A stretch of DNA of 64,000 nt from Promethearchaeati archaeon SRVP18_Atabeyarchaeia-1 (GCA_037308085.1 CP147779.1:2688001-2752000), one strand, 5' to 3'. Positions 12,514-25,664 are shown, counted from the first letter of the stretch. The notes: a model not told the origin generated them from the letters alone. Numbers and translations are program-made.

Positions 12514-12652
12514 CTACATCTGGAAGCCTGTCTTGCCAGCACCCACATCGTCAGGGCAGTCTCAAGCTCCTCATGCTCCTCAGCATAATCGCTGACCTTG
12601 ATACCCCCCATCACAGCATCAATCGCCTACCTAAAAGCACGAGGACCAGCAG
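12514..12652 (-). repeat. RLP 3'-end copy R1 (internal stop and frameshift)
   Basis: Minus strand reads AGPRAFR*AIDAVMGGIKVSDYAEEHEELETALTMW/../GKTGFQM*, matching the RLP C-terminus at 24295-24458. Confidence 0.93.
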
Positions 12653-12902
12653 TAGAACGCTCGGGAGTAGGCCACACCTTGCACTGCATGATTATGGTTC
12701 GACGGCTCACCTTACGCAGTGTGGTTTACTTCTATTGAGACTCGTGTAACCACTTTTAGTTGCAGTGATGCAAGGAGAATGATTCGAAATATGAACCAGT
12801 GTGCCCCTCGTTGAGCTATCTCTGGATTTGCTTAACAAAAAAGAGGGATGGAAGCTCTGCAGGAAGGCCGATGCCACAACCGGGATGACGTCATGGTCTG
12901 TG

Positions 12903-13550
12903 CTATTTGCGCCTCATGTACATTAGGGCTGCTACGATCACAAGAAGGGCTGCTGCTCCCCCAGCAACCAATACAAGCGTCAGCGGTATGCCGCCCGACT
13001 CGATATAATATGAGTTCAGCGTGTAGTTTTCCGTTAATCCTGCTCCATTGTTGTATCTCCAAACGAGGAGGACGCCGGTGAGTTTGTCTATGTAAGCTAC
13101 GACGTTGATGTCCATGATTGTTCCATTGATGTAGTTGGCTGTCCAGTAGCGCCCAGCGATATGATAGTTGGAGACCGTTGAGTTGAATTTCCAGCCTCCT
13201 GAACTAGGATACGGTGCCTCTCCTGCCGTGATGTTCGCTGCTACGAATCGCCAAATGCCATATTGGTACACATTCACATCGAAGGTGCCCGAGTGAGTAT
13301 TGTTCACGGAACCTCCCGGGTTGTACTCGGTCTTCTCTAGTGTGAGTACTGAGCCGCTGACTGCGGTGACGCGAACCCTAATTGCGTTGATAGCAAAGCC
13401 CGCCGCACTATAGGCGTAATCGTAGTAGGCATTTGTTCCCACAACTGCTCCCGGCTTAGTGTAGTCTGCTGCGCGTGTTGGGGCAAAGCTTGAGGAAACG
13501 ACCAATAGAATCGACAATGCCACCAGCGCGCAGGCTATTCCCTTTCTCAA
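12903..13550 (-). CDS. Secreted, C-terminally membrane-anchored hypothetical protein
   Basis: N-terminal signal peptide, N-x-S/T sequons, D..TG.L motif, C-terminal transmembrane helix followed by RRK. Confidence 0.8.
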   Translation of the reverse strand: MRKGIACALVALSILLVVSSSFAPTRAADYTKPGAVVGTNAYYDYAYSAAGFAINAIRVRVTAVSGSVLTLEKTEYNPGGSVNNTHSGTFDVNVYQYGIWRFVAANITAGEAPYPSSGGWKFNSTVSNYHIAGRYWTANYINGTIMDINVVAYIDKLTGVLLVWRYNNGAGLTENYTLNSYYIESGGIPLTLVLVAGGAAALLVIVAALMYMRRK

Positions 13551-13726
13551 GTGTTGTTACTCTCCATCTTCTTTCCCTATTCGCCCCTTATTGATTGATT
13601 GAGTATGTATCGTTTCAGTATTTTAAGTTTGCATCGCGTCAGCTACGGCCCTCGAGGCTTCTGGATCGCAGCTTAGGGTCGCTTGACGTTTTTCCCAGTC
13701 TCTTAAGCGCGCACGCTTACTAAGGC

Positions 13727-13762
13727 AAAAAGAAAAGTTGAGGAGAATCGAATTATTCTCCT
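13727..13762 (-). terminator. Hairpin plus oligo-T terminator downstream of RLP copy R2
   Basis: GGAGAAT-cgaatt-ATTCTCC inverted repeat, followed by a T-rich tract on the minus strand. Confidence 0.55.
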
Positions 13763-13771
13763 TCAGCGCTC

Positions 13772-13807
13772 TTACATCTGGAAGCCTATTTTACCAGTAC
13801 CATCTTC
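13772..13807 (-). repeat. RLP 3'-end copy R2 (short)
   Basis: ttacatctggaagcctattttaccagtacc = G-T-G-K-I-G-F-Q-M-TAA on the minus strand. Confidence 0.8.
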
Positions 13808-13887
13808 ACTCTGAAAAACGGAGCCGACGAGAACTCCACACCTTGAAGCAGCCAAAAACCAAATTAAAACTACTAAGATCTATTCTG

Positions 13888-23324: not shown

Positions 23325-24060
23325 TGAAGTCTAGAAGTATCTTATTGAACTTGTCTGGCTGCTCGATCATAGGCATGTGCCCTGCTTCAAAAATCATCTC
23401 TAGTGTCGATCCCTCTATACTCTCATGGAGAATCGCCGAAGAAGAAGCGAGCATATCATCAGCACCACACACGATCAATGTCGGGACCTTGATCTCCTTG
23501 ACCCTTCCGCTCAGGTCTATTCCGTTCAGAGCATCAAAGTCGTTAGCCAGGATGCTCGGATCGAAATCCGCCTCCACCCTAAAGTACTTCATTAACGAAG
23601 ACAGGTTCCCTTCAGTAAGCATCTTTGGAGACAAGAGCCTATTCAACAACTGGAGGCCAGCTTCCGCAGGATTATGGCGAATGCGGGCTGGGAGGTCGCC
23701 CAGGTTCTGAAACTTGGCACCGCTATCGATTATGATGAGTCTCTCAACAAGCTCTGAATGCTCCAGCGCTAGCAGTTGAACTATCACACCACCCATCGAG
23801 TGACCCGCAATGAGCCCCCTCGCTACCTTAGCCTGCTTCATGAAACCGACGACATGTCTGACGTACCCCTCTATTGTCGGCTTCTCCTTCATGCGCTCAG
23901 ACTTACCATGACCAGGAAGATCGATTGCAATAACCCTCAACCGCTTCGATAGTTCAGAAAGCTGGTTGACCCAGTAGCTGCTCATTCCACCTGCTCCATG
24001 AATTAGAATCAGTGCCCTTCCTTTTCCCCTGGATTCATAGAAAGTCCTCAGACCATCCAC
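23314..24060 (-). CDS. Alpha/beta fold hydrolase
   Basis: HGAGG, DLPGHG, GHSMGG, G.DD, AGH; an upstream ATG at 24082 (MPYA...) is out of frame by one base. Confidence 0.88.
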   Translation of the reverse strand: MDGLRTFYESRGKGRALILIHGAGGMSSYWVNQLSELSKRLRVIAIDLPGHGKSERMKEKPTIEGYVRHVVGFMKQAKVARGLIAGHSMGGVIVQLLALEHSELVERLIIIDSGAKFQNLGDLPARIRHNPAEAGLQLLNRLLSPKMLTEGNLSSLMKYFRVEADFDPSILANDFDALNGIDLSGRVKEIKVPTLIVCGADDMLASSSAILHESIEGSTLEMIFEAGHMPMIEQPDKFNKILLDFIGR

Positions 24061-24173
24061 AGTAACGAAGGGCGTATGGCATTCAACTCCATGACGTTGA
24101 GTGGCAGTACTATTTCGCCGATCTGTCTTTTATTCCCTACGCACGCGGGGAAACCAGTCCACACTTGATCTTA

Positions 24174-24215
24174 CTACATCTGAAACCCTGCCCTAGCACC
24201 GCTCCACTTGGTGAG
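24174..24215 (-). repeat. RLP 3'-end copy R9 (short, nearest the native gene)
   Basis: ctacatctgaaaccctgccctagcaccgctccacttggtgag = LTKWSGARAGFQM* on the minus strand. Confidence 0.85.
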
Positions 24216-24252
24216 TCTCGGGCTTCGGGGTAACCACACCAGTCATTTTAAT

Positions 24253-24285
24253 CCAAAAAAGAAGGAGGGATTCCGCAGATCTCCC
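24253..24285 (-). terminator. Native RLP terminator (hairpin plus T6)
   Basis: Minus strand GGGAGATC...AATCCCTCCTTC followed by TTTTTT; similar tracts follow most repeat copies. Confidence 0.55.
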
Positions 24286-24294
24286 AAATGCCCT

Positions 24295-25664
24295 TCACAT
24301 TTGGAAACCTGTTCTGCCGCCGCCCCACTTAGTGAGAGCAGTCTTCAGCTCCTCATGTTCCTCAGCGTAGTCACTGACCTTGATACCCTGCATCACCGCA
24401 TCAATCGCTTGCCTAAAGGCTCTTGCACCAGCAGCTGGACCGTCCGGGTGAGCGTGGACTACGGGTCCATCAATTAAAGATGGACTTTCCGCCTCCGGAC
24501 CCGATCATGATGTTGTTGCCGAGCATTTTCATGGTTTTCTCCACGTGGCCGGCAGTAATACCACCGCTTGGCATAGGCATCGTCGGCTTGATATGCTGCA
24601 AAGGAAACTGTAATCGCTTCGCCATCATCAAAAATTTGTCCTCAAGCAACGGAGCTTTGCCGTAGGGCGCCGGAACCAGGGCTATATCGGTCCCACATAT
24701 GCGCGGTAGCTTGGACATTATGAGAGACGGGGATACTCCCGTTATTGGACTATAGCTGATTTCGCCAGCCTCTTCAGCCGTGTGCGCCGGCTATGTCCAT
24801 ATGCCCCATTATTGGCAATGTGTTTGGTTCTTCTGCTACCATGCGTAGGGCGTCGTATCCGACTGCGAGGTAGTTGATGAGTAGGGCGTTTCCGCCTGCC
24901 TGTTTGACTTTGTCGGCGTTTTCGAGTAGTTTGTCTACTGGGCCGGTTATGTTGCAGCAGTAGAGTGTCTTTTCATCTTTTTCTTTGTTTGCTTTTTCTG
25001 CTTTTTCCATGTAGAGTGGGACGCGGTCTTCTATTTTGTTGTATGCTGGGTTGGCGATGATTTCGTCGTCTTTTATACAGTCAGTTCCGCCTACTGCGGC
25101 GCCGTAGAAGAGTTCTGCGCCTACTTCGGGCGTGTAACCCGTCTTGGGTTTTATCATATTATTCAGGAGTGGCCGTTTGGGTATGTCCATGAGGTCTCTT
25201 ATTCCTTGGAGTCCGTGTTTGGGTCCTTTGAATCCTTTGAGCCATTGTTTGGGGAACCATAGGTCCATGAGTTTGATTCTTCCGCCCATGCTGAGGTTGC
25301 CGATGACTGTGCTGAGTAGCATGGGGATTTCTGTGCCGAAGTTTTCCCATGGGAAGCCTACTGCGATGATGAAGTTGCGGTGGTCTACTTCCTTTGGGAC
25401 GGAGTAGACGTATTCGGGTGTTTCCCAGATGCCGAGTACTTTTGCTTGTCGCTTGATTTTGAGTTCTACTGTTTCGCCTGGGACTGGGGTCCAGGTGCCT
25501 GTGCTTTGTTCTAGGGCTGCCATTTCTGCTACGTCAGTTATTGGTAGTGCGGGGTTGAGTCCTGCGAAGTAGAATCCGATGACGTATTTGTCTGTGTCGA
25601 GGCCGTCGAAGAATCCTTGGGGTTGGGCTTCTATGGGTATTTCGTTTGGTTTTTCTTCAGACAA
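24295..25664 (-). CDS. RuBisCO-like protein (form IV), three exons: 25664-24782, 24759-24487, 24458-24295; 439 aa after splicing
   Basis: EQSTGTW, GNLS, IKPKTG, KDDE, PSGG, GGGIHAHPDGPAAGARAFRQAIDA; exon lengths 883+273+164 = 1320 nt in one frame. Confidence 0.9.
24459..24486 (-). other. Putative 28-nt BHB intron 2 in the RLP mRNA
   Basis: GCGG-AA^A-GUCCAUC-uuuaauu-GAUGGAC-CCGU-AG^U; removal restores GGG-I-HAHP. Confidence 0.82.
24760..24781 (-). other. Putative 22-nt BHB intron 1 in the RLP mRNA
   Basis: AUAGCCG-GCGC-AC^A-CGGCU-gaaga-GGCUG-GCGA-AA^U-CAGCUAU; removal restores AGA-L-SYSPITG. Confidence 0.78.

Follow-up and report, generated by a model that had tools for sequence, protein, structure and literature searches.

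Displaced copies of a RuBisCO-like gene end bound shuffled cargo genes in an Asgard archaeon, a probable 3'-end displacement array

The DNA analyzed here is a 64-kb window (2688–2752 kb) of the 2.81-Mb genome of an Asgard archaeon (G000). It holds a gene for a RuBisCO-like protein (RLP) that looks broken, lying in three reading frames owing to inserts of 22 and 28 nt. The parts of this gene, in window positions, are:

24782..25664, minus strand: RLP exon 1, 294 codons; Pfam RuBisCO_large_N and RuBisCO_large
24760..24781, minus strand: predicted 22-nt bulge-helix-bulge micro-intron 1, from fold and orthologue comparison
24487..24759, minus strand: RLP exon 2, 91 codons; Pfam RuBisCO_large; colinear with orthologues after splicing
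24459..24486, minus strand: predicted 28-nt bulge-helix-bulge micro-intron 2; no displaced copy reaches upstream of it
24252..24458, minus strand: RLP terminal exon (54 codons, TGA at 24295-24297) with hairpin/T-run terminator, the repeated unit

Both inserts are predicted to be bulge-helix-bulge introns, and with both removed the RLP gene is predicted to be intact. The folds place a 4-bp central helix between two 3-nt bulges, with an inner hairpin in the predicted fold of micro-intron 1, and cutting there restores both the frame and conserved sequence. Removal in silico of micro-intron 1 restores ...IAGALSYSPITG..., and removal of micro-intron 2 restores GSGGGIHAHPDG. The spliced G000 coding sequence has 439 codons and is colinear with intron-less orthologues; exon 1, the coding strand of which is unusually rich in A+C, shares 89% amino-acid identity with the G002 orthologue. 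Micro-intron 1 is missing from the orthologues in G002, G036, G007 and G013. Micro-intron 2 is common to G000, G002 and the metagenome allele L041, and is missing from L031, G036 and G007; its 7-bp inner stem shows two compensatory pairs when G000 is compared with L041. Additionally, six inserts at five positions in RLP alleles all match one pattern of 1 nt, hairpin, 4 nt and 2 nt. The two predicted micro-introns of the native gene, together with the identity of the repeated unit as the terminal exon, are the new point of this analysis.

The terminal exon shows a pN/pS of 0.10–0.14 against the native ends of G002 and L041. Compared with three relatives, its synonymous divergence in G000 is 0.53–0.73, against 0.33–0.46 for the body of the gene, and the exon is the higher against all three. 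The body is itself a recombination mosaic: taken third by third, two metagenome alleles differ by a pS of 0.51, then 0.16, then 0.12. At 0.9 kb upstream of RLP there is an HNH gene.

An earlier, sequence-only reading proposed that nine co-oriented copies of this gene end lie downstream, and tblastn, blastn and a profile HMM recovered all nine, with stop-codon ends at 12514, 13772, 15040, 16075, 17926, 19044, 20238, 20874 and 24174. The HMM was built from the copies themselves and searched against the whole 2.81-Mb genome. The copies are:

12475..12665, minus strand: copy 1, outermost, ~50 codons, internal stop and frameshift, TAG, terminator; E 1e-31
13725..13813, minus strand: copy 2, ~9 codons, TAA, 7-bp hairpin and T-run; E 0.05
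14994..15189, minus strand: copy 3, 49 intact codons, TGA, terminator; E 2e-36
16029..16203, minus strand: copy 4, 41 intact codons, TGA, terminator; E 2e-34
17885..18069, minus strand: copy 5, 46 codons, one-codon insertion, TAG; E 8e-32
18998..19175, minus strand: copy 6, 43 codons, internal stop, TGA; E 2e-30, pN 0.16
20201..20332, minus strand: copy 7, decayed, frame-shifted, TAG; E 2e-17
20830..20940, minus strand: copy 8, ~20 codons, TAG, 6-bp hairpin and T8; E 1e-11
24174..24215, minus strand: copy 9, last 12 codons and TAG, no T-run; repeat search, tblastn, nhmmer E 0.33

The native end matches at 24298-24474 on the minus strand of the window, and the nine copies lie on the same strand. 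Seven copies have nhmmer E-values of 1e-11 to 1e-36; two short ones are marginal by score, 13775-13801 (E 0.05) and 24177-24215 (E 0.33), and both retain register, orientation and stop codon. A stop codon is kept at the homologous place in 9 of 9 copies (TAG in five, TGA in three, TAA in one), and a short variable hairpin and T-rich run follow in eight of them, the exception being the copy at 24174, which sits 80 nt behind the native RLP stop. The window therefore holds 10 co-oriented ends, all anchored at stop codon and terminator, while the 5' truncation varies (8 to 50 codons) and no copy extends upstream of micro-intron 2. What anchors the array is the RLP terminal exon: the final 54 codons with their stop and terminator. 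Three extra copies lie outside the window in the same genome, at 1709987, 1711216 and 1800959. The copies share 74–89% identity over at most 180 nt, and the sole piece common to all 13 copies is a 15-nt block at the stop codon (GGYTTCCARATGTRR).

The ends bound eight cargo blocks, for which Pfam searches bore out the annotation made by eye (DUF1801 with ABM; NTP_transf_2 with HepT, twice; HEPN with NTP_transf_2; NIPA-type transporter with MGH1/GH63-like and alpha/beta hydrolase), leaving three cargo proteins without a Pfam family:

12903..13550, minus strand: 215-aa secreted/anchored protein; homologous cassette in metagenome array L057
13888..14671, minus strand: ABM monooxygenase-like (14387-14671) and DUF1801 (13888-14271); Pfam
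15329..16023, plus strand: MNT and HepT pair; Pfam
16560..17567, minus strand: 335-aa membrane protein, no Pfam family
18208..18913, plus strand: HEPN and nucleotidyltransferase pair; Pfam
19335..20182, plus strand: MntA-type nucleotidyltransferase and HepT toxin-antitoxin pair, against the array direction; Pfam Polbeta/NTP_transf_2, HepT-like
20370..20816, minus strand: 148-aa acidic protein, no Pfam family
20952..24060, minus strand: alpha/beta hydrolase (23314-24060), MGH1/GH63-like glycosidase (22011-23324) and NIPA-type transporter (20952-21887); Pfam

Three of the eight blocks are inverted two-gene operons transcribed against the array and one block has three genes; the stop of the NIPA-type transporter abuts copy 8.

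Because the genome was derived from metagenomes and repeats are classic misassembly points, such a layout could in principle be an artefact in which strain variants of a single locus were concatenated. However, stretch 13422-28664 of the window reappears in independent short-read assemblies: those in Logan, from at least three other sequencing runs, match at 100% identity over 13422-17721 and from ~17704 to beyond 28664, spanning 8 of the 10 RLP ends. This agreement makes a chimeric assembly very unlikely. Additionally, copies that are 74–89% identical are too different for collapse or mis-joining, and other complete genomes hold arrays too, so we regard an artefact as extremely improbable.

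The layout had been described as integron-like, and the resemblance extends to co-oriented repeats between small cargo blocks rich in toxin-antitoxin pairs. Integron cassette arrays and CALINs (cassette arrays without an integrase) include archaeal examples (PMC9668308), and some are reported in Asgard archaea. The analogy holds for layout; the defining features of integrons, when tested, were absent. As had been noted from the sequence, Pfam searches and DNA folding revealed no integrase or attC hairpin in the window: there was no match to IntI or any other tyrosine recombinase, serine recombinase, TnpB or Y1 transposase within the 64 kb. Four copies folded as DNA on both strands gave z of -1.4 to +0.2 with no end-to-end pairing, and the R''-L''/L'-R' symmetry looked for in the copies was absent, their folding being no better than that of shuffles. 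Furthermore, the repeats are coding and diverge synonymously, and three blocks are inverted and several carry two or three genes, whereas integron cassettes are expected to be mostly single, promoterless, co-oriented ORFs. We therefore rejected a true integron or CALIN, which we consider very improbable.

Recombinases do occur elsewhere in the genome. PF00589 matches lie at 168, 1555, 1662, 2015 and 2591 kb, none within 2688–2752 kb. Genome-wide, four tyrosine recombinases score above the Pfam cut-off and there are three serine-recombinase matches, one with an internal stop; one of the tyrosine recombinases is inside a 10.9-kb excising element 97 kb from the array.

The copies were proposed to be former functional alleles rather than neutral duplicates, and the substitution pattern supports this. 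For copy 3, the tally made by hand against the native end, with 16 codons differing synonymously and 1 non-synonymously among the final 41, proved exact. Against the native end, the copies show pS of 0.5–0.7 and pN of 0.05–0.16 (copy 4: 0.54 and 0.094), comparable to the distance between the native ends of two genera, G000 and G002 (pS 0.53, pN 0.07). Since these values match, nearly all of the divergence accrued under protein-level selection. The pattern indicates that the copies descend from functional alleles that had diverged, and did not arise by duplication in situ.

The copies do not become progressively more decayed with distance from the RLP gene. The best-preserved copies, 15040 and 16075, are distal, and the most decayed, 20238, 20874 and 24174, are proximal, and thus strictly serial outward pushing is unsupported.

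Arrays of this kind are also present in a congener and a sister genus, on contigs from wetland metagenomes, and in another Asgard family. G001 has four RLP-end copies, G002 nine and one metagenome contig at least eight, and family f12 (G033, G136) also has an array; the ~340 other Asgard genomes with a match have just 1–3 matches each. As the array reading anticipated, cargo content and order vary between relatives (G000, G001, G002 and metagenome contigs), with HepT/MNT, HEPN/MNT, VapBC, ICMT and secreted-protein cassettes recurring in differing orders. The MNT and HepT cassette (15329..16023) is found in the RLP-end arrays of G001, G002 and one metagenome contig, with both junctions conserved in a four-way alignment, and the HEPN and nucleotidyltransferase cassette is in the G001 array at another position. 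Shared cassettes keep their terminator-to-cargo and cargo-to-truncated-copy junctions while the adjoining cassettes differ, and their homology ends at differing points inside the upstream copy, genome by genome. Conserved junctions amid changed neighbours are the pattern that crossovers inside the copies would be expected to leave, which points to reshuffling by recombination among copies. In family f12 the repeated piece begins at another micro-intron, and one displaced copy retains the last 5 nt of that intron with its hairpin deleted.

The same gene-end architecture lies behind three other genes of this genome: atpB and those at 823593-824831 and 828681-829979. The latter two are convergent, and their old ends and old spacer sit mid-locus; G002 holds the empty site, with a 163-nt spacer. 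This locus and its empty site are direct evidence that a new end with cargo enters between the gene body and the old end. Of the earlier proposal that incoming alleles replaced the gene end and pushed the old one outward, this insertion step stands; strictly serial pushing finds no support in the decay order or the shared junctions.

Taken together, behind a gene predicted to be intact lie copies of its conserved end, all in one orientation and shortened at the 5' side, the pieces come from diverged alleles, and content and order vary among related genomes. We favour, at a probability of roughly 55%, a 3'-end displacement array comparable to those at rhs loci, in which homologous recombination assembled the cassettes and rearranged them, the gene end serving as portable homology. 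On entry, DNA from diverged relatives would bring an RLP end, its terminator and the donor's downstream genes, and would recombine into the resident RLP gene. The left join would form by homology. The right join would arise either by illegitimate joining, at a point in the resident end that varies from case to case, or as the other product when a small circle enters by one crossover. The RLP gene would then read through the incoming end, and the former end would persist downstream, silent and truncated at its 5' side. With at least two copies present, homologous recombination between copies within the cell or with imported DNA could excise, insert, reorder and delete blocks of end, terminator and cargo, as the shared junctions suggest. 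If gene-end copies recombine by homology, the 60-180-bp gene end would act as portable homology and a dedicated recombinase would be unnecessary. We infer the enzymology (host recombination, circular intermediates) and the origin of the very first duplication. For rhs C-terminal displacement arrays the published model is homologous recombination through circular intermediates (PMC2935791), and small excising circles are documented at other loci of this same organism (PMC11529989).

Several observations stand against the displacement model. Homology alone leaves the origin of each new cargo-to-copy junction unexplained, and the model does not predict that the upstream limit of the copies coincides with a micro-intron in two families. 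Sequences as short (at most 180 nt) and as diverged (74–89% identity) as these recombine poorly by homology in well-studied systems, and the public assemblies of this strain show no circle, deletion variant or alternative cassette order. The two smallest copies (~27 and ~39 nt coding) look more like core att remnants, and the 15-nt stop-codon block in all 13 copies, tiny ones included, may allow a short site-specific core.

These last points suit site-specific accretion, in which a tyrosine or serine recombinase, supplied from elsewhere in the genome or by a helper element since lost, would use the RLP 3' end as its attB, and integrase-less cassettes whose attP resembles the gene end would integrate in tandem, as do cis-mobilizable elements at tRNA/ssrA genes or e14 and phage 21 at icd. 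An element that integrates into a coding gene's 3' end characteristically carries a replacement end with synonymous differences, as at icd with e14 and phage 21, and the copies differ in this way. The recombinases in the genome, one of them in the 10.9-kb excising element, and the small circularising elements reported in this organism also fit. Nevertheless, no recombinase was found in the G000, G001, G002, f12 or metagenome arrays within the extent searched, and the 5' ends of the copies vary rather than being fixed. The differing points at which shared-cassette homology stops inside the upstream copy argue against it as well, and atpB and the two other unrelated genes would require several specificities. 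We consider this explanation unlikely, if plausible.

Break-driven capture, modelled on mobile endonuclease ORFs in fungal mitochondria, would start from a double-strand break in the last exon, made by a free-standing homing endonuclease or at the micro-intron inverted repeat. Repair would draw on a foreign allele, with copying carried on past the end of that allele and through the genes behind it; the extended end would be joined across the break, where the resident end would be truncated. Every copy begins at or past micro-intron 2, the longest of them 5–16 nt beyond its 3' splice site, and the f12 pieces, with the retained 5 nt, behave similarly. A LAGLIDADG-like ORF (825116-826090) lies inside an insert bounded by a gene-end duplication, as in mobile endonuclease ORFs, and on a metagenome contig a paralogue of it and an orphan RLP end lie 1.7 kb apart. 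Pfam separately picked out a fragmentary LAGLIDADG ORF (451717-452025) with 116-nt direct repeats on either side, and the HNH gene upstream of RLP could be counted here too. Documented cases exist of endonuclease ORFs that displaced the native C-terminus, with only synonymous differences between the two versions (PMC3630166). On the other side, tblastn with seven queries (five LAGLIDADG-like and two HNH proteins) found no homing endonuclease homologue in the RLP arrays of G000, G001, G002, f12 or the metagenome contigs, 0 of ~30 cassettes examined hold a recognisable DNA endonuclease, and cleavage at the intron hairpin is conjecture. We find this explanation quite doubtful. A related suggestion, to which we give low probability, is that the recombining module is the terminal exon and that the micro-intron site, through its DNA inverted repeat or intron-linked homing, is the break point where foreign exon, terminator and downstream genes are copied in. 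If true, intron-rich Asgard archaea would have a general integrase-free route to capture and shuffle genes behind conserved genes.

Whatever the route, ordinary genes appear to be collected and shuffled at the tail of a gene with no integrase nearby, and four known systems offer comparison. At rhs loci (also CdiA and T6SS effector loci; Jackson et al. 2009, PMC2935791), a full-length gene is likewise followed by co-oriented, 5'-truncated conserved pieces, each followed by a module of its own; lateral transfer supplied the alleles from which the pieces derive, and the proposed mechanism, small-circle homologous recombination, would shunt the old tip to a silent position. Here, in contrast, the repeated piece is the very gene end with stop and terminator, equal to the terminal exon. 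The encoded C-terminus is conserved and the variable module consists of unrelated whole downstream genes rather than a protein tip and immunity gene, unlike rhs/CDI in the strict sense, and the anchor is an archaeal metabolic gene, with atpB and other genes affected likewise. Integrative elements at gene 3' ends (tRNA/ssrA islands, CIMEs; e14 and phage 21 at icd) share gene-end duplications that bound inserted blocks, synonymously diverging replacement ends and arrays that may hold integrase-less members; our arrays differ in having no integrase in any of them, variable repeat boundaries and several unrelated genes used in one genome. Integrons and CALINs are alike in layout only, their IntI, attC structure and typically single-gene cassettes contrasting with the coding repeats and some multi-gene or inverted cassettes seen here. 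Lastly, the fungal mitochondrial mobile endonuclease ORFs with C-terminal duplication (Allomyces atp6; Glomus atp6, atp9, cox2 and nad3; PMC3630166) bring an in-frame replacement C-terminus with mostly synonymous differences and leave the native one downstream, unexpressed. Each of those cases is a single event whose insert carries a LAGLIDADG or GIY-YIG gene, whereas here nine ends are stacked with no endonuclease in any array, and the endonuclease-bearing case lies elsewhere in the genome, at ~825 kb.

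The sequence-only reading had counted nine displaced ends of the gene for the RuBisCO-like protein (RLP) besides the native end, all in the same orientation. Searches with blastn, with tblastn and with a profile HMM built from the copies agree on these nine and place them, like the native end, on the minus strand.

Displaced RLP gene ends in the window (position of the stop-codon end, strand), from blastn, tblastn and profile HMM
12514, minus strand, displaced RLP end
13772, minus strand, displaced RLP end (one of the two shortest)
15040, minus strand, displaced RLP end
16075, minus strand, displaced RLP end
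17926, minus strand, displaced RLP end
19044, minus strand, displaced RLP end
20238, minus strand, displaced RLP end
20874, minus strand, displaced RLP end
24174, minus strand, displaced RLP end (one of the two shortest)

Seven of the nine were recovered with E-values of 1e-11 to 1e-36; the shortest two score marginally and keep register, orientation and stop codon. The stop codon is the fixed anchor of each copy, with a 5' truncation point that differs and leaves about 8 to 50 codons. Behind the stop, eight copies have a short hairpin, variable in sequence, and then a run rich in T. The cargo blocks between the copies match their earlier description (a secreted protein; DUF1801 with ABM; MNT-HepT; a membrane protein; HEPN-MNT; MntA-HepT; an acidic protein; DMT, GH63 and a hydrolase). 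A search of the complete 2.81-Mb genome (49.5% G+C), of which the window covers bases 2688001-2752000, returned three remote copies, at 1709987, 1711216 and 1800959, and no match beyond these, the native end and the nine window copies. The array is not an assembly chimera, a concern raised from the sequence alone, because Logan assemblies made independently from other runs reproduce 13422-17721, and the stretch from about 17704 to beyond 28664, without a difference. Exact-protein look-ups for population variants at the locus returned solely the reference arrangement, or nothing. We conclude that the feature is real.

Just past the outermost copy, a 400-nt stretch (11985-12383) shares 88% identity with a segment found upstream of RLP in the sister genus (G002), which exceeds the identity of the neighbouring coding DNA. 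This similarity is a trace of rearrangement between the two genomes. Rfam gave no family match for this stretch, nor did any family match in a search of the window.

Bulge-helix-bulge introns in pre-mRNA are rare in archaea. The RLP gene that anchors the array spans three reading frames owing to two minus-strand inserts, of 22 nt (24760-24781, predicted intron 1) and 28 nt (24459-24486, predicted intron 2), and from its sequence appears not to be broken. Each insert is predicted to fold into a central helix of 4 bp flanked by two 3-nt bulges, plus an inner hairpin; if the bulges are cut in silico behind their second base, precisely 22 and 28 nt drop out. Splicing would then give a single frame of 439 codons that aligns colinearly with orthologues lacking the introns, at ...IAGALSYSPITG... 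and ...GSGGGIHAHPDG.... The 28-nt insert is common to our genome (G000), G002 and a metagenome allele and is missing from a closer metagenome allele, and its stem carries two compensatory pairs between alleles. Further inserts under the same rule occur at other positions, of 31 and 33 nt in metagenome alleles and of 32 nt in G033, from genus g20 of a second Asgard family (f12); these three cases were derived by hand from sequences and folds. In total, six frame-breaking inserts of 22-33 nt at five positions were found in RLP alleles of the two families (G000, G002, the metagenome loci L041 and L031, and G033). All six fit bulge-helix-bulge intron geometry, intron-less alleles exist, and the exon downstream of intron 2 is under purifying selection. 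A +1 frameshift or ribosome hopping at AAU-UGA-U was ruled out in favour of splicing, since G002 has not conserved the GGA landing codon; it is further disfavoured by the single rule that the six inserts obey and by the match of intron-less alleles to the spliced product. In Atabeyarchaeaceae, tRNA genes are heavily interrupted by introns (bioRxiv 10.64898/2026.10.13.758758); the word mRNA is absent from the text of that paper.

None of the displaced copies reaches upstream of intron 2, and the longest begin 5-16 nt past its 3' splice site. Family f12 repeats a longer piece, of about 111 codons, whose start coincides with that lineage's 32-nt intron; one displaced copy there retains the last five bases of the intron, with the hairpin missing. 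Thus, because the copies are limited at intron sites in both families, the repeated unit is the terminal exon in Atabeyarchaeaceae and f12 alike. The coding strand of RLP exon 1 and of the upstream 152-aa gene is strongly A+C-rich and the remainder is not, with a sharp switch in this part of the gene. On the plus strand, AT skew falls to -0.59 and GC skew is about +0.2 over about 24650-26450, and the skewed stretch ends inside the RLP gene near the APYGK site, the position of the f12 intron and array breakpoint. Capture driven by a break, made by an endonuclease or at the intron hairpin, is possible given these positions; homologues of the genome's free-standing LAGLIDADG or HNH genes were found in none of the RLP arrays examined. 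A homing endonuclease residing within the arrays was also considered and rejected, as none was found.

Several genes near the RLP gene were recorded in passing. A free-standing HNH endonuclease gene (115 aa, 26583-26930, plus strand) sits 0.9 kb upstream of where RLP starts and runs opposite to it, and an intein with a LAGLIDADG domain splits a NifU-like gene (34190-35728, plus strand). Two paralogous proteins of ~225 aa outside any Pfam family are encoded upstream of the RLP gene (27171-27848 and 28096-28779, minus strand).

Relative to the native end, the better-preserved copies show pS of 0.5-0.7 and pN of just 0.05-0.16 (Nei-Gojobori), and the 16 synonymous and one non-synonymous codon differences counted earlier by hand for one copy proved exact on recount. 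The native ends of G000 and G002 differ by the same distance (pS 0.53, pN 0.07). By their substitution pattern, the displaced copies are once-functional gene ends. Equivalently placed copies across genomes have mutual pN/pS of 0.3-0.65, as expected from decay following displacement. Some displaced copies are nearest to a native allele from a metagenome (pS 0.16-0.29), indicating that the family's circulating alleles form the pool that supplied the ends. The identity matrix of the G000 and G002 copies is star-like (74-92%), with no clear orthologous pairs, so that copy ages cannot be ordered by phylogeny; in a comparison with relatives' native ends, no copy was clearly closest as the original end. 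The constant 3' end at the transcript terminator and the 5' truncation had prompted us to consider a retro-copy origin, which is ruled out because the copies come from diverged alleles and not from the resident gene.

Searches for tyrosine recombinases, serine recombinases, TnpB and Y1 transposases were without match in the window, and as single-stranded DNA the copies fold no better than shuffled sequence, bearing out the earlier statement that integrase, transposase and attC hairpin are missing there. An integron is ruled out by the absence of IntI and of an attC-like fold. A site-specific recombinase encoded elsewhere and acting in trans is possible alongside the empty searches of the window. 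Involvement of IS200/IS605 elements in the array was rejected, as the genome's TnpB matches (49, of which 42 over the Pfam cut-off), Y1 matches (3) and omega-RNA-like ends (about 25) all lie outside the window. Two of the three remote copies sit in a 4.5-kb insertion (locus L060, genome 1704000-1716000) bounded by two co-oriented IS605/omega-RNA-like ends, at a site that is empty in the congener (G001), with the third 2 kb away from a further end of this kind; the remote copies look like secondary relocations. A further ~225-aa paralogue (genome 1707572-1708300) adjoins remote copies. No viral donor emerged: the conserved RLP end, searched as an exact pattern, was absent from the viral contigs scanned. 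The motif AATTAACTTAT occurs twice in the genome, exactly 10,867 bp apart, a spacing that matches the Yucahu-i element of Atabeyarchaeum deiterrae group 1 (PMC11529989).

The displacement process is not specific to RLP. Behind atpB (605055-606536) its 3' end recurs three times in truncated form, every copy having a stop codon and a pyrimidine-rich tail; the cargo that these copies separate (genome 596-606 kb) includes ORFs of 298 and 513 aa. At locus L068 (genome 822500-831000), two convergent genes (823593-824831 and 828681-829979) have one displaced 3' end each, and the two old ends lie together in the middle with a spacer of about 170 nt. In G002 the same genes are 163 nt apart with nothing between them. 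This pairing of an empty with a filled site shows directly that, at L068, a new end and cargo were inserted between gene body and old end. A LAGLIDADG-like ORF (825116-826090) occupies one insert, and a serpin the other.

Among 400 Asgard genomes, RLP-end matches stand out in G000 (11), G002 (10) and G001 (5), and in genus g20 of f12; wherever else matches occur, there are 1-3 per genome, a number that fits the RLP and RuBisCO genes themselves. The G002 array comprises nine displaced ends, and its first slot is taken up by a 10-kb block that includes a type IIG restriction-modification gene alongside a HerA-like ATPase. Four ends lie on a G001 contig, with HepT/MNT and HEPN/MNT cassettes as in G000 in the opposite relative order. 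A metagenome contig has at least eight ends and cassettes homologous to G000 and G002 cargo and also to G000 genes outside the array, one of these adjoining the atpB array. In a four-way alignment of the HepT/MNT cassette, the junctions from terminator to cargo and from cargo to the next truncated copy are both conserved, while the truncation point of the upstream copy falls at a different codon in every genome and adjacent cassettes differ. The VapBC cassette, compared between G002 and the metagenome contig, follows the same junction pattern. Conserved junctions amid differing neighbours are the pattern expected from crossovers within the copies.

Of the readings considered, the one with most support is a 3'-end displacement array that homologous recombination maintains, the gene end serving as portable homology. 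It is also backed by the mosaic RLP body and by the G000 terminal exon, which is more diverged than the body at synonymous sites (0.53-0.73 vs 0.33-0.46). The strictly serial outward pushing proposed earlier does not fit, as preservation is best in distal copies and decay most advanced in proximal ones. Homologous recombination has its weak points: the copies are just 74-89% identical, neither a circle nor a variant arrangement was observed, and the origin of new cargo-to-copy junctions is unaccounted for.

The interest of the arrays lies chiefly in their recurrence, the absence of an integrase and the tie to the terminal exon. The tail of an ordinary metabolic gene acts as a docking handle for exchanged genes. 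What is stacked behind RLP and exchanged across genera, with no integrase found, comprises toxin-antitoxin pairs, transporters and hydrolases, to which the sister genus adds a restriction-modification island. The same handle principle at atpB and other genes of G000 suggests what may be a widespread, undescribed route of archaeal gene flow. The micro-intron link, if real, would join intron biology to gene capture in the lineage nearest eukaryotes. RuBisCO, cassettes and these repeats go unmentioned in the paper on Atabeyarchaeia mobile elements (PMC11529989), which does not describe the arrays. Under homologous recombination, circles would be excised between copies and then re-inserted through a single crossover, the model proposed for rhs arrays, the known C-terminal displacement arrays (PMC2935791).
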